A stretch of 64,000 nt of DNA from Sulfurovum sp. TSL1 (GTDB lineage: Bacteria; Campylobacterota; Campylobacteria; Campylobacterales; Sulfurovaceae), in contig NZ_BPFI01000001.1 of assembly GCF_019972135.1 (NCBI RefSeq), positions 43,106-107,105 on the forward strand, written 5' to 3'. The notes under the pieces are model-generated. The model saw only the letters and a program-made list of their open reading frames with translations, was not told the DNA's origin and ran no database searches. How positions within the stretch are numbered: position 1 is the stretch's first letter; each line of letters opens with the position of its first letter. Below, piece by piece: positions 29,126 to 38,294 of this stretch. Position numbers and translations under genes: made by a program.

Positions 29126-29134
29126 TGATATAAT
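29126..29134 (+). promoter_or_regulatory. Extended -10 promoter element TGATATAAT upstream of hypothetical-gene cassette
   Basis: TGnTATAAT match 30 nt upstream of the ATG at 29164, in the 115-bp gap after thiE. Confidence 0.35.
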
Positions 29135-29163
29135 GCATTAAAAAAAGAAGTGAGAAGTAGACT

Positions 29164-29958
29164 ATGGCAGAAAAAGATGAGAATTATGCATTTCCATGGG
29201 GATTTCATTTAGGAGATCTACACAAAGGAAATGAGACTATTCCTTTATATACGCTCAGCAGTGACGGCGGATTTTGCCTCTTGTATGATCATGCCTCTGA
29301 AGCAAAAGCTGACAAGCTACTGGAGAGTCTTTGTTTGGAATTGCTCTCTACCATGCCCCATGAGAGTTTAAAGGTCGATCTTTTTGATTTTGGTAGAAAG
29401 AAGTTCTATAATCTTTCGCCCTTACAGTATGTTCAGCTCTATAGAACTGCATATGATACTAAGATGATGTCAGCACTTTTTGAGGAGCTTGAAGAGACCG
29501 TTATCTCCCGTCATAAAGAGTTACTGTGCTGCAACAGACCTACCATCAATGAACATAATCAAAAATCTAAACTGAAAAAGATGTATCATCTGGTATTGAT
29601 CAATTTGGAAAACTTCCCTACTGAAGAACTCGAATTAAGAAGAATCAAAAATTTTGTGGAATCAGCTGTCCAGGCGGGTGTCTATATCATTGCATTTGGG
29701 AATCAAAAGATAGAAGAGAATGAAAGTCAAACCATACAGACCATTTTGGAGCATTTTAAGAAGCTAAGAGTCACAGAAGGCGAGTTTGACATTACCAAAG
29801 AGATCTTTGAATTTGTTGAACTTCTGGAAGATCATGATTTTAAGTCACTGGATCTTGATAAAGGTTCTCTCATGCAGAAAACTCTTACCAATGCAGACAT
29901 TGAAGGTCTCATCAACCCCGAGAATATCAAACTAGAAGAGAATACAAAAGTCAAATAA
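29164..29958 (+). CDS. Hypothetical protein (264 aa, no recognisable motif)
   Basis: Clean ORF with its own promoter-like element. Alternating hydrophobic strand-like segments (MYHLVLINLENF, GVYIIAFGNQ) but no Walker A. Confidence 0.4.
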   Translation: MAEKDENYAFPWGFHLGDLHKGNETIPLYTLSSDGGFCLLYDHASEAKADKLLESLCLELLSTMPHESLKVDLFDFGRKKFYNLSPLQYVQLYRTAYDTKMMSALFEELEETVISRHKELLCCNRPTINEHNQKSKLKKMYHLVLINLENFPTEELELRRIKNFVESAVQAGVYIIAFGNQKIEENESQTIQTILEHFKKLRVTEGEFDITKEIFEFVELLEDHDFKSLDLDKGSLMQKTLTNADIEGLINPENIKLEENTKVK

Positions 29959-30039
29959 CAGGTTTCTTTGTGTCGGTTGATAGATACTGATACAAAGAGA
30001 TAATAGATAAATGAGCTTTAAAACAGGAGTAGCGTAACG

Positions 30040-30642
30040 ATGGGTGATGAAGAGCTTTTAACTATTGAAGATGACAAGAATCGAAAACTGTTTTATCGTT
30101 TCACACCTGCAGCTTTAATTTCAAATTTTGTGCCCTTGATCGTTATCCTGGATGAGGAAACAACACACTTTGAACACAAGATGTGGAATGTACTCACACC
30201 CCTGGGGCATTTCGGATCTGAAAACAAAGATCTCCTACAAACGCTTATAGAGCAAATCGCCGAAGAGTATGAATGTGAAGACCATATCTATCTATATGGA
30301 AGGGGAATGGACGGCTATGGGGCTATTTTGCACGGTATTTTATGCGGGGCCAATGCGGTCTATGCACATGCACCTCGCATAAGACTAGAAGAGACAAAGG
30401 GTGCAGATACACTCTCTCAAGAAAATGATCTAACCAATTTTTTAAATGCTACCGATACGTTTCCTGTTTTTTACCTGCGTGAGGATGAAAATGATCCGGA
30501 AGATGAAACAGCATATTTTGCAGATGCCTGTAAAAAACATGGGATCAAAGTGTATCTGGACTTTTGTCCAAAGTCAGAAGATGAAACACAGGTCATCAAA
30601 GAGGTTTTAGGTTTCTTTGAACGGATGGCTTCTGAAGGATAA
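30040..30642 (+). CDS. Hypothetical protein, degenerate alpha/beta-hydrolase-like (nucleophile elbow LYGRGMDGYGAIL with Gly in place of Ser)
   Basis: LYGRGMDGYGAILHG resembles the nucleophile elbow of the true alpha/beta hydrolase at 34810 (LFGHSMGGAIAL) but lacks the Ser. Confidence 0.35.
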   Translation: MGDEELLTIEDDKNRKLFYRFTPAALISNFVPLIVILDEETTHFEHKMWNVLTPLGHFGSENKDLLQTLIEQIAEEYECEDHIYLYGRGMDGYGAILHGILCGANAVYAHAPRIRLEETKGADTLSQENDLTNFLNATDTFPVFYLREDENDPEDETAYFADACKKHGIKVYLDFCPKSEDETQVIKEVLGFFERMASEG

Positions 30643-30692
30643 TGAGGACTCTTAATGAATAATGATGTAGACTTCTACAAAAAAGGATCTTT

Positions 30693-30914
30693 ATGGATAT
30701 GAGTATGCACATGGAACCGATCAATCTAGTGAAGTCATTGAACGGTACCTATAAACAGGCTGATAAAGAGATGGTCGTAGAGCTACTTAACGCCTATAAG
30801 GAAAAGAATAACTGTAGCTATAAACATGCATACGATATGATGGTTGAGGGAAATCCATCCTACTCTGCATACACCGCATGGAGACGTAAGTTAGCATCCG
30901 GCCAAGCCCTATAA
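30693..30914 (+). CDS. Small hypothetical protein (73 aa)
   Basis: ORF only. Third gene of the co-directional cassette. Confidence 0.3.
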   Translation: MDMSMHMEPINLVKSLNGTYKQADKEMVVELLNAYKEKNNCSYKHAYDMMVEGNPSYSAYTAWRRKLASGQAL

Positions 30915-31211
30915 ACATGTCTTGACGATCTTCTCTCCAAGGCTGTTCGCCGCTTGGTGCATCTCCCACCAGTATGCAAGCTCACGTGCCTCATTTGACT
31001 CTTTGTTGTTCATTATTTTCTCGAAAGTGTCACTATCTAAACCTTCGATCTCTGCAGACAACTGTGCCACACAGTCAACAAGAAAGTCATAATCATACGA
31101 GTTTGCACACTCTTGTACCTCTTCTGGCACCTTTTTCCCTTGTGATACGAGTAGATAAACATATAGCTGACAGTTCCTGCGCAATCGTAGTTCTTTGTTA
31201 GAGGGATTCAT
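30909..31211 (-). CDS. Hypothetical protein (100 aa)
   Basis: ORF convergent with and overlapping the 73-aa gene by 6 nt. Its promoter would lie in the 290-bp AT-rich region 31212-31502. Confidence 0.35.
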   Translation of the reverse strand: MNPSNKELRLRRNCQLYVYLLVSQGKKVPEEVQECANSYDYDFLVDCVAQLSAEIEGLDSDTFEKIMNNKESNEARELAYWWEMHQAANSLGEKIVKTCL

Positions 31212-31425
31212 GATCTGCTATCCTTTTTAAACATTTAAATGATCTATTTTTTGTTACTTTACCCTAGTAATGTTAAAGTTGCTTGAAGAGATTTGAAAAC
31301 AGTTATTTTTTGATGATCAAGAAGAGTTCTTGAAATTCTCTTTATTACTTTAAAACCTTATGAAGTTATATATTTTATGAGGTTTCTAAACTATATGTAT
31401 CTTTCAGCCTATTTCTTCTATACAT

Positions 31426-31434
31426 TGATATAAT
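31426..31434 (+). promoter_or_regulatory. Extended -10 promoter element TGATATAAT upstream of SPFH/zinc-ribbon gene pair
   Basis: TGnTATAAT match ~68 nt upstream of the ATG at 31503, within a 290-bp AT-rich divergent intergenic region. Confidence 0.35.
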
Positions 31435-31502
31435 TTGACTAAAACACTCAAATTAAATTTTTTCGTTAGAATAAAAAAACAAATATACAAGTAGGAGTAA
31501 TA

Positions 31503-32498
31503 ATGCCATTTTTTGACCCTTTAGAAAGACAGCTACGCTCAGTGATCCAATGGGATACAGATCATGAAGATGCATTGTTTTATAGGTGGAGCAGTAATGG
31601 TGATGAGATAAAGAATGCATCAAAGCTTATCGTAGGCCCCACACAAGGATGTATTCTTGTCTATGAAGGAAAGATCAGAGCTGTATTTGACAAAGAAGGG
31701 CTCTTTAATATCAAAACAGACAATATTCCCTTTATTACAACGCTTAAAAAAGTCATGCAATTCTTTGAGAGTGAGCATAAAGCAGAATTTTACTTCTATA
31801 AAAAAAATATCATTACTGATCAGAAATGGGGAACTGTAGCACCTGTTAAATACATCGATCCTGTTTATGACTTCCCTGTAGAGCTTATTGCTTTTGGTAA
31901 TTACAGTATGCAGATCAAAGATCCTAGAAGTTTCTTTGTCTCTATTGTAGGAGAGCAGGAATACTTCGGCATAGAGGATCTCAGAAAGATCATCAATGCC
32001 AGAATCGTTCATCCAATGAGTGATACCTTTGCTGAATCAAAAGTGTCATATAATCATATAGATGAACAAAGAGAAGAGTTGGGTGATGCACTTAGAGAAA
32101 AATTGGATAAAGAGTTCGATAAGCTGGGTTTTCATCTTTCAGACTTCAGGATTGAGGGAACTGAATTTGATGAAAATACCAGAGATAGAGTCGGAAAGAT
32201 AGCAGATACAAAAGCAACGCATTTTGCTGCAAAATCAGTGGGTGTAAGTTATCAGGATATGAGAAAACTGGATTCCCTTGAAGCAGCTTCAAAGAATGAA
32301 GGCGGGGCTGCAGGTGTATTTCTCGGAGCTGGTGCAGGTGAGGCATTGTCTCCAGAACTTAGAAAACCTTTTCAGGAATCTGAAGCAAAGCAGTCAGTAA
32401 CCCAAAGACTTCAGCATCTAAAAGAGATCTTTGATAATGAGCTTATCACAGAAGAGGAGTATACAAAGAAGAAACAGTCTCTTTTGGATGAAGTATAG
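31503..32498 (+). CDS. SPFH/band-7-like protein (COG4260 'virion core protein'-like) with C-terminal SHOCT domain
   Basis: Length and composition fit YdjI-like SPFH proteins. C-terminal RLQHLKEIFDNELITEEEYTKKKQSLL is a SHOCT-type motif. Confidence 0.5.
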   Translation: MPFFDPLERQLRSVIQWDTDHEDALFYRWSSNGDEIKNASKLIVGPTQGCILVYEGKIRAVFDKEGLFNIKTDNIPFITTLKKVMQFFESEHKAEFYFYKKNIITDQKWGTVAPVKYIDPVYDFPVELIAFGNYSMQIKDPRSFFVSIVGEQEYFGIEDLRKIINARIVHPMSDTFAESKVSYNHIDEQREELGDALREKLDKEFDKLGFHLSDFRIEGTEFDENTRDRVGKIADTKATHFAAKSVGVSYQDMRKLDSLEAASKNEGGAAGVFLGAGAGEALSPELRKPFQESEAKQSVTQRLQHLKEIFDNELITEEEYTKKKQSLLDEV

Positions 32499-33125
32499 AT
32501 GAAATGTAAATTTTGTTCAGCCCCATTACCTAAAAAAGGTCCTATCTGTGATTATTGTGGTCAACGAAACCCTCTAAACCTAAGAGCCCTTTCAAAAGTT
32601 GATATTGAAGATAAGAGTGAAGATCATAATTGTCCAGTTTGTGATGTTGCCTTTGACAATATTAATATAGGAAAAAGAGAGAGAATCGTTGTCAAAAGAT
32701 GTAATGACTGTGATGGTGTATTCATTACTGAGGATATTCTAGAACACCTTATCAAAAGAGAAGCAATCTTGAGAGTTGAAGTGGATCACAGAGTCCTTCG
32801 TTTTGTACAGGATAATCCCAGACAGAAACAAGAATCGGTCATCAGATACAAACGGTGTCCTGTCTGCGAGAATATGATGCAGAGGATCAACTACAGGTCT
32901 GTGAGTGGTGTGATAGTTGATAGATGCCTTAGACATGGAGTTTGGCTTGATGGAGGCGAACTTAAGCAGCTTTTTGAGTGGAAAAAAGCAGGAGGATCTT
33001 CAAAAAAAAGTGAAGTTTCGAGAAATAATCAATCATCCAATAGGGGATATATTTATGAAGAATCTAGAATATCTTCATATTTTGATCCATTAGGTGATTT
33101 TTTTAATTGGTTACAAGGCGGGTAA
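32499..33125 (+). CDS. Multi-zinc-ribbon protein (N-terminal zinc ribbon plus two TFIIB-type zinc-finger modules), YdjG-like
   Basis: CKFC...CDYC; CPVC...CNDCDGVF; CPVCENMM...CLRHGVWLDGGEL. Starts 1 nt after the SPFH stop. Confidence 0.5.
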   Translation: MKCKFCSAPLPKKGPICDYCGQRNPLNLRALSKVDIEDKSEDHNCPVCDVAFDNINIGKRERIVVKRCNDCDGVFITEDILEHLIKREAILRVEVDHRVLRFVQDNPRQKQESVIRYKRCPVCENMMQRINYRSVSGVIVDRCLRHGVWLDGGELKQLFEWKKAGGSSKKSEVSRNNQSSNRGYIYEESRISSYFDPLGDFFNWLQGG

Positions 33126-33293: not shown

Positions 33294-33650
33294 GTGACGA
33301 TGAACTTTGAACAATTAGATACTTACTTACGATCAAAACAGGGTGTGACCTTTGATTACCCTTTTGATGAAAAAGTACGGGTGTATCGCATCGCTGACAA
33401 AATGTTTGCTTTAACTTCAGAAGAGAAACCTGTCTCGGTGAATCTCAAATGTGATCCGATCTATGCGTTGGAGCTTCGTTCACTCTATGAAGGTATCATC
33501 GCGGGTTACCATATGAATAAAAAGCATTGGAACACCGTGACGGTGGAGGATTCCGATGTCGATGATGAAACAGTGAAAGAACTGATAGACCACTCCTATG
33601 AGCTGGTGTATGAGAAATTGACCAAAAAACAAAAAGCTTTACTGGGGTAA
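33294..33650 (+). CDS. MmcQ/YjbR-family protein
   Basis: 118-aa sequence pattern of MmcQ/YjbR (DUF419) proteins. Classic neighbour of ogt. Confidence 0.55.
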   Translation: MTMNFEQLDTYLRSKQGVTFDYPFDEKVRVYRIADKMFALTSEEKPVSVNLKCDPIYALELRSLYEGIIAGYHMNKKHWNTVTVEDSDVDDETVKELIDHSYELVYEKLTKKQKALLG

Positions 33651-33652
33651 AG

Positions 33653-34168
33653 ATGAATACGATCAGCATACAATACTTTCAGACACCTGCGGGAGAAATG
33701 ATCTTAGGGGCCTATGACAATAAACTCTGTATGGCTGACTGGCGATACAGAAAGGGCAGGGAGACTATAGATAAAAGGCTGCAAAAGGGCCTTGATGCCA
33801 TGTTTGTCGAAGAGGAGAGTGAGGTGCTGGATTTGGCCAAAGAGGAGCTCGAAGCCTATTTTAAAGGCTTACGTCAAACATTTGATATTCCTTTGCTGTT
33901 GGTCGGTACAGCGTTTCAAAAGGCTGTCTGGCAGGAACTGCTTCAGATTCCTTTTGGCACCACTGTATTTTATAAGGAACTGTCTCAAAATATGGGCAAA
34001 ACGACGGCAGTAAGAGCTGTAGCTTCCGCAGTAGGTGCCAATGCGCTCTCTTTTTTCATACCTTGTCATCGTGTTATCGGGTCTGATGCTACTTTGAGAG
34101 GTTATGCCGGTGGTTTGGAAGCAAAGAAAAAGCTATTGGGACATGAACAAAATATCTTTACGATATAA
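33653..34168 (+). CDS. ogt: Methylated-DNA--protein-cysteine methyltransferase
   Basis: Active-site IPCHRVIG motif and C-terminal HTH of MGMT. 171 aa. Confidence 0.8.
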   Translation: MNTISIQYFQTPAGEMILGAYDNKLCMADWRYRKGRETIDKRLQKGLDAMFVEEESEVLDLAKEELEAYFKGLRQTFDIPLLLVGTAFQKAVWQELLQIPFGTTVFYKELSQNMGKTTAVRAVASAVGANALSFFIPCHRVIGSDATLRGYAGGLEAKKKLLGHEQNIFTI

Positions 34169-34195
34169 TCATTTTATAGTTTAAAGTAGGTAAAC

Positions 34196-34801
34196 ATGGA
34201 AAAGAAAAACTTTTTTGAATCTGTCTATGAGAATGTAGACCATGATGATCTCTCGTCCATCCCCTGGGCGACACTTGCACCCAACGTCTATTTGGAAAAA
34301 CACTTAACTCTGCAAGGGCCTGTTTCAGGTAAAAAAGCTCTGGTGATCGGCTGCGGTTTAGGCGATGATGCACTGATCCTGGAAAAGCATGGCTATGAAG
34401 TAGAAGCCTTGGATATCTCTCCCTCAGCAATAGACCTGGCGAAGAAGAGACATCCTGAAAGCAAGGTCGATTTTCATGTAGGCGATATCTATAATATGCC
34501 TGAATCTTCTGTCGGTAAATATGATTTTGTCTATGAAGGGTTGACCATTCAGTCTTTACCTCCTTCAGACAGAGAAAAATTGGTGGGTATCATCGTTTCG
34601 CTTGTGGCCAAAGAGGGAGAATTGTTCGTCTATGCACATGCACAGGATGATACAGATAATTATGGCGGACCGCCATGGCCATTGTATGCAGATGAATTTA
34701 CGCTTTTTGAAAAAGAAGGGATGGAACAGGTCTATCTTGATAAAGAAACAGAAAGTAAACCCGTAGCACCCTATAAATGTTGTGCACTTTACAGAAAATA
34801 G
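34196..34801 (+). CDS. Class I SAM-dependent methyltransferase
   Basis: Motif I VIGCGLGDDALIL followed by the acidic post-I residue (EALDIS). TPMT/TehB-like size. Confidence 0.65.
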   Translation: MEKKNFFESVYENVDHDDLSSIPWATLAPNVYLEKHLTLQGPVSGKKALVIGCGLGDDALILEKHGYEVEALDISPSAIDLAKKRHPESKVDFHVGDIYNMPESSVGKYDFVYEGLTIQSLPPSDREKLVGIIVSLVAKEGELFVYAHAQDDTDNYGGPPWPLYADEFTLFEKEGMEQVYLDKETESKPVAPYKCCALYRK

Positions 34802-34809
34802 GATAGCGT

Positions 34810-35739
34810 ATGTCGATCCAAAAGATCATTCTCATTCTCTTAATTGCAGTGTTGAGTTTGACCACCGACAGTGCAACAAAACTCTATGATATGGTGATGC
34901 ATTATGAACGTTATACTGCAGGGTTAGAGAAAAAATGTATCACTTTGGATTTTGGAAAGATGGTCTACCTTGAAAATCATGTCAAAAGTGATGAAACACT
35001 GCTGTTTGTTCACGGTTTTGGCGGGAACAAGGATACTTGGAACAGACTGATCGAAGCATTGGATGAGAAGTATCATGTCATAGTGGTCGACCTTCCCGGA
35101 CATGGGGAGAGTATTTCAGAAAAGACGTTGGGATATACGATGTCGGAGCAGGCAGAAAGATTATACAAATTTGTAGAAGCTAAGGATCTGAAAGGCTTTT
35201 ATCTCTTTGGACACTCTATGGGAGGGGCCATTGCATTACGCTATACGGGTAGTCACGAAGAAACGCTAAAGGCGCTCATCCTCATAGATGCTATGGGTCT
35301 TGAAAAAACAAAAAGTGATGGTGTGAAACTTGTAGAAAGATCCGATAAAAATCCACTTTATGATGTCTGTACGGAAGAGAGACTGGAAACACTTTTACGC
35401 TACTCTTTGTACAAGCCTCCCTATATTCCGGATATCATTAAAGAGGCACTGCTTCAAGAGAAGTGTCAAAGACGTGATCTGGAAAAAATACTCTATGAAG
35501 ATATGTATAAAGATGTCTGCTGTTTCAATGATCTTGCAAAAAGGATCCATATCCCAACCCTTATACTATGGGGAGAGAAAGACAGGATGACACACATAGA
35601 CAATGCAACCTTGTTTCATGACACCATTAAGAACAGTCAGTTGGTCACATTTAAAGAGATAGGACACGTACCGATACTTGAAGACCCTGAAAGAACGGCT
35701 GATGCGGTTGAGAGCTTCATTCAAGAAATGAAGAAGTAG
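34810..35739 (+). CDS. Alpha/beta hydrolase
   Basis: Signal/TM N-terminus, oxyanion HGFGG, nucleophile elbow GHSMGG, C-terminal His. Confidence 0.7.
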   Translation: MSIQKIILILLIAVLSLTTDSATKLYDMVMHYERYTAGLEKKCITLDFGKMVYLENHVKSDETLLFVHGFGGNKDTWNRLIEALDEKYHVIVVDLPGHGESISEKTLGYTMSEQAERLYKFVEAKDLKGFYLFGHSMGGAIALRYTGSHEETLKALILIDAMGLEKTKSDGVKLVERSDKNPLYDVCTEERLETLLRYSLYKPPYIPDIIKEALLQEKCQRRDLEKILYEDMYKDVCCFNDLAKRIHIPTLILWGEKDRMTHIDNATLFHDTIKNSQLVTFKEIGHVPILEDPERTADAVESFIQEMKK

Positions 35740-35804
35740 TCAGGGGAAAAAGGGTGCGATAATTTTATCAAAAAGATAATACATCCTTCCTAAGAGGTAA
35801 CTCT

Positions 35805-38294
35805 CTACATGTGTTTCTTAGTCTTAGAAGTAGCTATAGCAGTAAGTGGATCGTCTGGCCAGTAGTGTTTTTTGTATTTGCCTCTTAATTCTTTTTTTAC
35901 TTCTTCGTAAGTGTTTTTCCAAAAGTTCTCCAGGTCTTGTGTGACTTGCATGGGGCGTGAGGCCGGAGAGAGCAGGTGGATCATCAGTTTAACTTTCCCA
36001 CCCAGTACAGTAGGTGTGCTTTGGGTTCCAAACATTTCTTGGAGTCGTACCGCTAAGACGGGTTGTGCTATGTTAGTGTAATCTATGGCAATGTTTGAAC
36101 CACTGGCTACTTTTAACTTAGTAGGTGCCAGAGTGTCCAAAAGTTGCGTCTGTTCAAAACTCATTTGGCCCAAAAGTATGTTGTAAAAGTCTAAATTTTG
36201 ACATGCCCTGAGTGTAGTGATACCTGAGAGGTAAGGGGCTAACCATTTATCCATATTTGCTAAAAGATGTTCGTCTGAAAAGTCTGGAAATTCCATTTGG
36301 TGTGCATTGACAAAGTTTACTCTTTGTCTAAGCAGGAGGGCTTCTTTGCTCCAGTTTAGAGCATTTAATCCCAACGCTTCCAAGGCTTCAAGCAGTACAT
36401 CCAGTATTTCTTCGTTTGAGGTGTTCATGCGTTGTGTTTCGCGTAAAAGTATGGCACCTAAACGATGCACTCTACGCACTTCAACTCTTTGCTGTTCCTC
36501 GTTCCAATCGACCTCGTCACTTTGTTGTATCTGTACTTGAAGATGTGCTTCTATTTGTGTTTGTGTGAGCTCTATGGCTTTATAGATGGTGGCATCTTTA
36601 CTGCGGGCATCCAAATCAGATATCACTAAAAAACGTGCATGAAAAAGTGCATCACTTTTATGCAATGATGCACCTTTTGCATTAGAGAGCAGGTAGCTGT
36701 GGTTTTTTTCATAACGTTGTTTTGCTATGCGATCAGGGTAGGCAAAGGCCATGAGTATGCCAAGCATCTCTAGATCTATGGTTTCTTTTTGTACTTTTTC
36801 TATGCGTTTGGCATTGGCAAGTAGGTACTGGCATTGTTTGAGGTTGATACATTGCGTATCTACAGCTACTTTTTGCGCAACATCATGCAGTACAGAGACA
36901 CGTTCACGCATGTCTGATGAACCAAAAGCATTACGGTAGATGTCTTTTTCTGAAACCAAAACTGCTAACAGGGAGGCTTCATACGCAAGGCCCAGTGTTT
37001 GAGCCTTCAGCATCATGTGTGCCAGTCTTGGATGGAGTCCATAACGACTCATCGCTATACCATGCGGCGTAATCTCTCCTTTTTCATCCAGTGCACCTAG
37101 CTGTTGCAGAAGCTTCTTGGCATGGTTTACAGCAGAGCTCGGAGGGTTGTCCATCCATGAAAGCGCATCTATCTCATCATTTCCCCAACGTGCCAGCTCT
37201 AAAACCATTTGGCTAAGGTCAGCCAAGAGTATCTCAGGGACATCGTGTTTTAAAAGTATCTTGGACTTGTGCCAAAGATGATAGGCTTTTCCTTCAGACA
37301 AACGCCCCGCGCGTCCTGCTCTTTGGGTGGCAGAATCTTGGGAGATAAAGTGACTTTCAAGTTTGTTCATCCCCGAAAACGGGTTGAAGATGGAGACATT
37401 TTGAAGCCCGGAGTCCACCACTACGGTAATGCCTTCTATGGTCAAAGAGGTTTGAGCAATGTTGGTACTAAGTACCACCTTTCTGAAGCCTTTAGGTGGT
37501 GCATTTATGGCTCTGTCCTGTGCTTCTTTACTAAGGTTACCATAGAGTGTTGAGACAAAAACATCTTTGGGTTTGGTTGTGTTTAGAAGCTTTTCTACAG
37601 CTTTTATCTCTCTTACACCTGCTAAAAAAACGAGTATATTCCCTTCTTCTTTTTGTAATATACTGTGTAGAAGCGAATGTACGAAAGAGGGTAGCTCTTT
37701 TTTGTTTGGTTGAGGTGTATGGGTCGGTAGATAGATGCTATCTACAGGAAAAGAACGTCCCTCACTTTGTACAATGGGGGCGTGATCCATGAGTTCTGAA
37801 ATGGCAGAAGTATTCAGTGTTGCAGACATGATGAGTATCTTCAGGTCTTCTCGTAGTATGGACTGAGACTCAAGTGCTAAAGCCAAAGACAAGTCCGCAT
37901 GTAAAGAACGTTCATGAAACTCATCGAAGATGATGAGAGCCACATCTTCCAAGCTGGGGTCATGTTGTAGTTTACGGGTTAATATACCCTCTGTAATGAT
38001 GAGTATCTGTGTCTCTTGACTCTGTACAGATTCCATCTTTATCTGATAGCCGATGCGTTGACCTACTTTTTCACCTAGAAGTTCAGCCATACGGGCAGCA
38101 GAAGATCGCACTGCCAAACGACGAGGCTCCAACATAATGATCTTCTTACCCTTTAGCCAAGGTTCCTCTAACAGTGCTAAAGGAAGTGCCGTTGTTTTCC
38201 CTGCACCTGGTGGTGCCTGGAGTACTAAACGGTTGTTGTTTAGAAGTTTCTCTTTAACCTCGGGTATGACTTGGGTGATGGGTAGGGTTTTCAT
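35805..38294 (-). CDS. hrpB: ATP-dependent RNA helicase HrpB
   Basis: DEAH-box helicase motifs (PPGAGKTT, DEFHER), HA2 and OB domains, HrpB-specific C-terminal extension. 829 aa. Confidence 0.85.
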   Translation of the reverse strand: MKTLPITQVIPEVKEKLLNNNRLVLQAPPGAGKTTALPLALLEEPWLKGKKIIMLEPRRLAVRSSAARMAELLGEKVGQRIGYQIKMESVQSQETQILIITEGILTRKLQHDPSLEDVALIIFDEFHERSLHADLSLALALESQSILREDLKILIMSATLNTSAISELMDHAPIVQSEGRSFPVDSIYLPTHTPQPNKKELPSFVHSLLHSILQKEEGNILVFLAGVREIKAVEKLLNTTKPKDVFVSTLYGNLSKEAQDRAINAPPKGFRKVVLSTNIAQTSLTIEGITVVVDSGLQNVSIFNPFSGMNKLESHFISQDSATQRAGRAGRLSEGKAYHLWHKSKILLKHDVPEILLADLSQMVLELARWGNDEIDALSWMDNPPSSAVNHAKKLLQQLGALDEKGEITPHGIAMSRYGLHPRLAHMMLKAQTLGLAYEASLLAVLVSEKDIYRNAFGSSDMRERVSVLHDVAQKVAVDTQCINLKQCQYLLANAKRIEKVQKETIDLEMLGILMAFAYPDRIAKQRYEKNHSYLLSNAKGASLHKSDALFHARFLVISDLDARSKDATIYKAIELTQTQIEAHLQVQIQQSDEVDWNEEQQRVEVRRVHRLGAILLRETQRMNTSNEEILDVLLEALEALGLNALNWSKEALLLRQRVNFVNAHQMEFPDFSDEHLLANMDKWLAPYLSGITTLRACQNLDFYNILLGQMSFEQTQLLDTLAPTKLKVASGSNIAIDYTNIAQPVLAVRLQEMFGTQSTPTVLGGKVKLMIHLLSPASRPMQVTQDLENFWKNTYEEVKKELRGKYKKHYWPDDPLTAIATSKTKKHM

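Follow-up and report, generated by a model that had tools for sequence, protein, structure and literature searches.

SPFH proteins are ubiquitous membrane organisers. To our knowledge, the Band_7_1 branch of these proteins is known experimentally only from YdjI (SamI) of Bacillus subtilis, which works together with PspA and two membrane proteins. YdjI is soluble and needs partner proteins for its recruitment to the membrane (PMC8581546), it acts in envelope stress (PMC8581546; bioRxiv 10.64898/2026.02.06.704340), and in the model proposed for B. subtilis the SPFH protein SamI serves as a brake on its SamGH zinc-ribbon/TPM partners (bioRxiv 10.64898/2026.02.06.704340). Here, we analyzed a two-gene locus at positions 31503-33125 of a 64,000-nucleotide stretch of the genome of Sulfurovum sp. 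TSL1 (contig NZ_BPFI01000001.1, positions 43,106 to 107,105 of the forward strand; this whole stretch is hereafter called the window), which an earlier reading of the DNA, hereafter the original prediction, had described as an SPFH/SHOCT protein paired with a triple zinc-ribbon protein, similar to YdjI and YdjG in the absence of PspA. We found that the two genes form an autonomous, translationally coupled operon, and we propose that it may encode a PspA-independent scaffold recruited to the membrane by its zinc-ribbon partner.

Two open reading frames (ORFs) were confirmed at these positions, both on the plus strand: the first (31503-32498) encodes a 331-amino-acid SPFH protein of the Band_7_1 family, and the second (32499-33125) encodes a 208-amino-acid protein with three zinc ribbons. 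Very strong database matches were obtained for both ORFs (best E-values 2e-205 and 6e-132, respectively, with 1833 homologues found for the SPFH protein); thus, we concluded that both are real genes. The start codons of both genes agreed with the N-termini of all homologues. The TAG stop codon of the SPFH gene (32496-32498) directly abuts the ATG of the zinc-ribbon gene (32499), leaving a spacer of 0 nucleotides (nt) in the same frame instead of the 1-nt gap that had been reported. For the forward survey, the SPFH alignment was searched against 185,579 species-representative genomes, which yielded 306 relatives; 80 loci were kept and checked by six-frame hidden Markov model searches, and 79 of them were assessable. 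A zinc-ribbon gene was located directly downstream on the same strand in 76 of these 79 loci, and the gap between the two genes ranged from -4 to +12 nt in 61 of the 66 cleanly called loci (median 0.5). The carriers included Campylobacterota, Methylococcales, Desulfobacterota, Fibrobacteria, Cloacimonadales, and others. For the reverse survey, metagenomes were scanned with the zinc-ribbon alignment, and a Band_7_1 gene was found to precede 37 of the 43 assessable close zinc-ribbon relatives and none of the 19 distant ones (74-102 bits). These surveys, which yielded at least 110 operon pairs, indicate a strong, not absolute, linkage of the SPFH and zinc-ribbon genes, and the exceptions are weighed below.

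The partner was retained irrespective of the C-terminal tail of the SPFH protein, which is SHOCT-like in the window and is replaced by GYF_2 in a sister clade; thus, the zinc-ribbon gene tracks the Band_7_1 core and not the tail. Clustering of all neighbouring ORFs across the surveyed loci revealed no third conserved family, and the next commonest neighbour was a hexapeptide transferase gene, present in 23 loci of methanotrophs only. The genes flanking the pair in the window, including four hypothetical ORFs, were never observed beside the pair in the other loci, and the flanks differed even among Sulfurovum relatives, of which the closest was a Sulfurovum metagenome-assembled genome (MAG; locus L007) with 94% amino-acid identity in the SPFH protein and 89% nucleotide identity. 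With no conserved third gene and with varying flanks, the pair therefore represents a compact, self-contained cassette of variable genomic position. We proposed to describe this arrangement, which is also that of the window pair, as an SPFH(Band_7_1)-3xZnR dyad: a Band_7_1 gene directly followed, within about 12 nt, by a same-strand gene that encodes one zinc ribbon, two further PF13453 ribbons, and a C-terminal amphipathic helix.

Some individual loci showed peculiarities of their own. At L005 (5790-6699), only a 65-amino-acid ORF lay before the zinc-ribbon gene; the end of this ORF matched profile positions 294-331, the SPFH protein's SHOCT tail, and it is either what a deletion has left behind or a small partner consisting of SHOCT alone. 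At L029 (6974-7641), a frameshift split the zinc-ribbon gene into two ORFs, which represent a pseudogene or an assembly error. The pair of L008 (JBDLIN010000289.1), labelled as a Bacteroidota MAG, was 77% identical to that of the window in nucleotide sequence, with 81% amino-acid identity between the SPFH proteins, and this contig was probably mis-binned or the pair was recently transferred.

The domain search that the original prediction had named as a check identified the first protein as a band-7/SPFH protein, with Band_7_1 (PF13421) matching residues 27-227 (31581-32183, plus strand) at an E-value of 4e-42 and 144.7 bits against a cut-off of 24. This domain is followed by a helical region at approximately residues 224-265, by a Gly/Ala-rich linker (residues 266-296), and by a SHOCT-like two-helix tail at residues 302-328 (32406-32486, plus strand), to which both Pfam and the AlphaFold2 (AF2) model point. 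For the predicted SHOCT end, we therefore speak of a SHOCT-like element: its score in the window protein (25.5 bits, E-value 1.1e-5) is just below the gathering cut-off of 27 bits, many orthologues have a precomputed PF09851 match, and AF2 placed C-terminal helices at residues 299-311 and 317-330. The AF2 model (predicted local distance difference test, pLDDT, 75.6) matched stomatin, prohibitin, HflK/C, flotillin, erlin, and QmcA with a Foldseek probability of 1.0 at 11-15% identity, and the modelled protein has the SPFH alpha/beta fold. Neither a transmembrane helix nor an N-terminal hairpin was detected in this protein (maximum 19-residue Kyte-Doolittle hydropathy 0.84). Conservation is among the highest in the protein in the segment NIPFITTLKKVMQFFESEHK (residues 72-93; 31716-31781, plus strand), where T72, N74, P76, F77, T79, K83, F88, S90, E91, H92, and K93 are invariant; despite this conservation, AF2 left residues 76-91 unmodelled (pLDDT <50), and we regard the segment as a candidate interface or membrane loop.

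Compared with membrane-anchored SPFH proteins, this protein shares the fold and lacks the anchor. Its best structural matches were the cage-forming proteins HflK/C-FtsH, flotillin, prohibitin, erlin, and stomatin (E-values 6e-9 to 1e-6), in which the SPFH domain is likewise followed by helices; however, at the low identity given above, it differs from them in having no transmembrane helix or hairpin and only a short helical region before the Gly/Ala linker and SHOCT tail. The SPFH-NfeD operons (QmcA-YbbJ, stomatin-STOPP; PMC2636767) also comprise two genes, a SPFH scaffold and a small dedicated partner, and the fold of the window protein is that of QmcA (PDB 8z5g). In contrast, the partner in the dyad is a zinc-ribbon protein without an NfeD domain, and the N-terminal membrane anchor predicted for most prokaryotic SPFH subfamilies, SPFH-NfeD included (PMC2636767), is absent. 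A PspA-free setting for Band_7_1 has also been described in the proteobacterial DUF350 - Band_7_1 - DUF4178 - speD operons linked to polyamines (PMC11237479), although their SPFH proteins show only about 26% identity to that of the window, and their partners are DUF350, DUF4178, and S-adenosylmethionine (AdoMet) decarboxylase, with no zinc-ribbon protein. One distant Band_7_1 paralogue in such a DUF350 - SPFH - DUF4178 - speD operon was encountered on a Ralstonia solanacearum megaplasmid (L087; CP056086.1, 1667269-1670861).

The second protein proved to have the composition that had been predicted, one N-terminal ribbon and two of the TFIIB type. The first ribbon (ZnR1, residues 3-20; 32505-32558) is an N-terminal CxxC-x10-CxxC motif, and a weak DZR match in Pfam covered residues 3-49. 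Zn_ribbon_TFIIB (PF13453) matched in two stretches (E-value 4.3e-13, 48.9 bits against a cut-off of 22), which correspond to ZnR2 (C45-C71 with a helix at residues 78-90; from 32631) and ZnR3 (residues 119-159; 32853-32975), all on the plus strand. The ligands of ZnR2 have the pattern CxxC...CxxC and those of ZnR3 the pattern CxxC...CxxH, and all 12 zinc ligands of the protein are conserved (C3, C6, C17, and C20; C45, C48, C68, and C71; C120, C123, C143, and H146). ZnR3 contains a near-invariant motif (SGV..D.C..HG.WLDGGEL), which is a likely contact site for the conserved SPFH loop at residues 72-93 (NIPF.TT.KK.MQ.FESEHK). Beyond the ribbons, the chain continues as a low-complexity linker and then a short C-terminal helix. 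In the AF2 model, pLDDT was 56.7 for the whole protein and averaged about 60-80 in the blocks that cover the zinc-ribbon modules, and no transmembrane helix was detected in the protein (maximum 19-residue hydropathy 0.61). ZifS of Thermus thermophilus (TTHA0897, PDB 8yoz) provides the sole solved structure with a PF13453 ribbon; it resembles ZnR3 (phmmer E-value 0.007; Foldseek probability 0.84-0.92) but differs from the window protein in its length of about 80 amino acids, its single ribbon, and the absence of a known SPFH link. The searchable literature yielded nothing on the function of ZifS, and nothing relevant on zf-TFIIB together with SPFH or on Band_7_1.

The C-terminus of the zinc-ribbon protein carries an aromatic/amphipathic segment, FDPLGDFFNWLQ (residues 194-205; 33078-33116, plus strand), a putative membrane-seeking or docking helix for which AF2 modelled residues 197-205 as helical at low confidence. 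This terminus tells more about the likely mechanism than any other feature, and the C-termini of 237 members of the zinc-ribbon family were surveyed with the Eisenberg surface-seeking zone as the criterion. An amphipathic C-terminal helix within this zone, often after acidic residues, was found in 179 members (76%); transmembrane-like hydrophobic segments took its place in 10 members (4%), such as P0254, P0270, and P0369, and the remaining 48 had other or truncated C-termini. In three Fibrobacteria loci (L043, L053, and L079), the zinc-ribbon protein ends in a polybasic tail. The amphipathic, transmembrane-like, and polybasic tails would all fit an anionic membrane surface, and a purely protein-docking role fits them less well. 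Terminal amphipathic membrane-targeting helices are also found in MinD and FtsA, which resemble the zinc-ribbon protein in layout, with a flexible linker between the globular part in the cytoplasm and an amphipathic helix of 10-15 residues at the terminus; there is, however, no sequence relationship, and membrane binding by the tail of the window protein is putative.

Two further observations concern this element. In the Sulfurovum clade, an FDPL-centred motif is common to the N-terminus of the SPFH protein (PFFDPLERQL, 31506-31535) and the C-terminus of the zinc-ribbon protein (SYFDPLGDFFNWL, 33075-33116), and this may represent mimicry, a joint binding site, or chance. In a Cloacimonadales locus (L048 7014-10833; OY762463.1), a single SPFH gene precedes a tandem array of six zinc-ribbon paralogues, some of which have strongly hydrophobic, transmembrane-looking tails.

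For the comparison with the Bacillus module, we used the database protein P0390 and the B. subtilis locus L170. P0390 was identified as YdjI with a query sequence that matched database Bacillus proteins at 98-99% identity. The gene order in L170 is PspA_IM30, Zn_Ribbon_TF, TPM_phosphatase, and Band_7_1, and the termini of YdjG in this locus agree with the primers printed in PMC8581546. The window SPFH protein aligned with YdjI in BLASTP at 26% identity over 273 amino acids (E-value 6e-27), and both belong to PF13421 and lack a transmembrane helix; as judged by this alignment, the protein is a true homologue of YdjI/SamI. The two systems are also alike in that the SPFH protein is encoded with a zinc-ribbon protein bearing a C-terminal membrane element, which is putative in the dyad. 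They differ in several respects. No pspA or TPM/ydjH gene was detected beside the pair at the dyad loci: tblastn with B. subtilis PspA and YdjH found nothing in the 64-kb window and 169 fetched loci (1.43 Mb in all), and neither PF04012 nor PF04536 was present near the pair in the Pfam-annotated loci or among the annotated flanking genes of the window. The pair is therefore stand-alone, as had been predicted, with no PspA adjoining it. The tail of the SPFH protein is SHOCT-like, whereas that of YdjI is a fused zinc ribbon of the classes DZR, Zn_Ribbon_1, and Zn_ribbon_3, the same classes that match some relatives of the zinc-ribbon protein in precomputed annotation. The zinc-ribbon protein of the dyad has two PF13453 ribbons plus one in 208 amino acids and lacks both a transmembrane helix and an NTF2-like domain. 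Finally, the SPFH gene comes first in the dyad, and the hosts are Gram-negative bacteria, not Firmicutes. Separately, in a Methylocucumis MAG (L084 1667-4861), a partnerless SPFH gene was directly adjoined by divergent genes for TPM_phosphatase and a Tim44-like protein; YdjH of B. subtilis is itself a TPM-domain protein.

Based on these comparisons, we proposed that the dyad may encode a PspA-independent, peripheral SPFH scaffold that underlies the membrane and has the zinc-ribbon protein for its adaptor or anchor, a reading that we hold to be somewhat more probable than all others together. In this mechanism, the SPFH protein would oligomerise like other SPFH proteins, and, having no anchor of its own, it would be brought to the cytoplasmic face of the inner membrane and organised there by the zinc-ribbon protein, whose ribbons would bind the scaffold and whose C-terminal helix would bind lipid. 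A second, weak contact, with the membrane or between subunits in the oligomer, may come from the SHOCT tail, and the complex might serve membrane organisation or envelope-stress homeostasis independently of PspA. The binding of the two proteins to each other, their membrane localisation, their oligomeric state, and their physiological role are what we infer here; the membrane-stress role that had been suggested for the pair is plausible solely by analogy with YdjI. A recruited peripheral scaffold is the best supported reading because the SPFH protein is anchorless, YdjI depends on its partners (PMC8581546), an anchoring role at the inner leaflet has been proposed for SHOCT-like domains (PMC11237479), and the tails of the partner family are membrane-seeking. 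The close linkage and coupling of the two genes, the retention of the partner with either SPFH tail, and the zinc ribbon fused to the end of YdjI also speak for this reading.

Several observations weigh against this reading. Three genomes (L045, L069, and L084) carry the SPFH gene without a zinc-ribbon partner, and six close zinc-ribbon partners were found without an SPFH gene. No natural fusion of the SPFH and zinc-ribbon proteins was present among the best 150 family representatives. In addition, the tail of the window zinc-ribbon protein itself (FDPLGDFFNWLQGG) is aromatic-rich and borderline amphipathic (hydrophobic moment 0.56), so that it falls in the class of other C-termini, and its terminal helix could equally dock onto a protein.

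The main rival to the recruited scaffold is a signalling brake, in which the scaffold would hold the zinc-ribbon protein, as a transducer or regulator, in an inactive state and release it on perturbation of the membrane, comparable to SamI-SamGH and PspA-PspF. The SPFH protein of the B. subtilis model restrains its zinc-ribbon/TPM partners in this manner, the tight stoichiometric coupling of the two genes would suit a sequestration pair, and orphan zinc-ribbon genes exist (L006, L101, L110, and L141). Relatives of the zinc-ribbon protein are annotated in the database as 'Zn-finger nucleic acid-binding protein'; however, the family name of PF13453 is no proof of DNA binding, and the Pfam search of the window protein recovered zinc-ribbon families only, with no helix-turn-helix, sigma or anti-sigma, kinase, or other output domain. 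Moreover, no regulator is conserved nearby, and the conserved membrane-seeking or transmembrane C-terminus points to a protein that resides at the membrane. We therefore consider the brake unlikely, albeit worth weighing.

The original prediction had also raised a defence role and had pointed to the adjoining block of hypothetical genes; in such a role, which would amount to anti-phage defence or abortive infection, the module would sense infection at the membrane and trigger growth arrest. The patchy occurrence of the pair across phyla and its different genomic positions, even between relatives whose SPFH proteins are 94% identical, would be in keeping with this idea, as would the four adjoining ORFs. 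These ORFs, at 29164-29958, 30040-30642, and 30693-30914 on the plus strand and 30909-31211 on the minus strand, had no Pfam or PADLOC match; the last of them, of 100 amino acids, matched phrog_11759, a PHROG of unknown function (E-value 1.3e-8), and guanine-cytosine (GC) content across the hypothetical block (29126-31211) was slightly lower, at 0.36-0.41. However, the block never accompanies the pair elsewhere. In PADLOC-DB 2.0, neither protein of the pair had a match, nor did six proteins encoded in the flanks, no effector domain (nuclease, protease, pore former, or NTPase) was present in the pair, and the neighbours of orthologues, where annotated, were housekeeping or other ordinary genes, such as folP, holB, lysC, pyrH, relA, HflX, and tRNA synthetases. 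No meaningful match to the pair was found in PHROGs, where the matches of the SPFH protein were confined to the region of its SHOCT-like tail; no SPFH relative was present in 2.9 million viral contigs, a phage collection gave one SPFH match at 28% identity, and a plasmid collection gave distant matches only, those listed being megaplasmids or chromids of 1.7-2.2 Mb at about 26-32% identity. The SPFH proteins of Campylobacterota and Gammaproteobacteria also share 52% identity, unlike fast-evolving defence genes. Taken together, these results make a defence function very improbable.

The weakest alternative takes the zinc-ribbon protein for an orthologue of YdjG in a psp operon shorn of pspA and ydjH. 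Of the proposed YdjI/YdjG-like pair, the YdjI half stood, with the SPFH protein homologous to YdjI, and the YdjG half did not, although YdjG and the zinc-ribbon protein both have zinc ribbons at the N-terminus and a hydrophobic or amphipathic element at the C-terminus. BLASTP between the two found no sequence similarity (best E-value 0.23), and the window protein, a PF13453 protein, had no match to PF08271 at an E-value of 0.1 or lower, whereas YdjG scored 41 bits to this family. YdjG consists of PF08271, a large middle domain of about 200 amino acids, and a C-terminal transmembrane helix (see also PMC11237479), and the window protein lacks both the middle domain and the helix. In addition, tblastn with YdjG recovered true homologues in five high-GC metagenomic contigs, at 24-27% identity over about 340 amino acids (E-values 1e-25 to 1e-29), and there they are encoded in tightly packed SPFH(GYF_2) - 3xZnR - YdjG-like operons (L122, 1010-2859; L125, 33-3494; L134, 1454-4417; L137, 38-1883; and L133), with a C-terminal transmembrane helix in the YdjG-like protein. 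Since a YdjG homologue directly follows the three-zinc-ribbon gene in these five operons, the two are distinct components that are able to coexist; thus, orthology with YdjG is scarcely credible, refuted as homology and surviving only as a loose functional analogy. The three-gene operons link the dyad evolutionarily to the Bacillus module.

Extending the preferred reading of a recruited scaffold, we tentatively put forward a wider proposal, possible though rather doubtful at present, that the three-zinc-ribbon protein belongs to an unrecognised class of soluble adaptors that tether an anchorless SPFH assembly through a terminal amphipathic helix. The dyad would then be an SPFH system without an integral-membrane subunit that serves PspA-independent membrane maintenance in Campylobacterota, methanotrophs, and other Gram-negative bacteria, and it would form a conserved core to which Bacillus SamGHI-type systems add a YdjG-like protein, TPM, and PspA.

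Upstream of the pair lies an AT-rich spacer of 291 bp on the plus strand (31212-31502) with candidate promoters and a ribosome-binding site; its GC content is 0.22 over the last 200 nt, and that of the region 31000-31499 is 0.31. The AT-rich region with an extended -10 element that had been predicted is indeed present, with a perfect TGATATAAT at 31426-31434 (plus strand), 69-77 nt upstream of the ATG of the SPFH gene, but the TGNTATAAT motif showed no enrichment in the window as a whole, where it matched 4 times and 3.7 matches would be expected. A second, proximal -10-like element, TAGAAT (31467-31472, plus strand), lies within the stretch conserved with L007, and a Shine-Dalgarno sequence, AGGAG (31493-31497, plus strand), is located 5 nt upstream of the ATG. 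Nucleotide similarity to L007 starts only at 31459, 44 nt upstream of the ATG; thus, most of the 291-bp spacer is unconserved. Among 17 Campylobacterota orthologous loci, TGnTATAAT was found at -30 to -39 from the ATG in 7, with TATAAT there in two more, a position that corresponds to the TAGAAT of the window and not to TGATATAAT. From these motifs, either TGATATAAT or TAGAAT could be the promoter, and the pair likely has a promoter of its own. A search of Rfam gave no match better than an E-value of 0.92. No intrinsic terminator was detected after the zinc-ribbon gene, where the 3' spacer folded no better than shuffled sequence (z -0.58). A perfect TGATATAAT also occurs at 29126-29134 in the hypothetical block, ending 30 nt before the ATG at 29164.

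Downstream of the pair, the region 33294-38294 contains genes for YjbR (PF04237), an O6-methylguanine-DNA methyltransferase, and a TPMT-like methyltransferase, together with a 309-amino-acid ORF judged by eye to encode an alpha/beta hydrolase and an 829-amino-acid HrpB-like helicase gene on the minus strand, also assigned by eye. The genes of this region were unlinked to the pair in the other genomes.

The dyad is thus widespread and uncharacterised; it adds no new kind of system and has no link to defence. The same scaffold that accompanies PspA in B. subtilis is encoded, in several Gram-negative phyla, by a minimal unit of two genes, in which its zinc-ribbon partner is a different and uncharacterised protein and PspA is absent from the locus. 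The cultured isolate Methylotuvimicrobium buryatense 5G (L056), which is genetically tractable, carries the dyad. The dyad thereby represents a compact, testable system for how an anchorless SPFH protein reaches the membrane and for what is bound by the widespread PF13453 ribbons.

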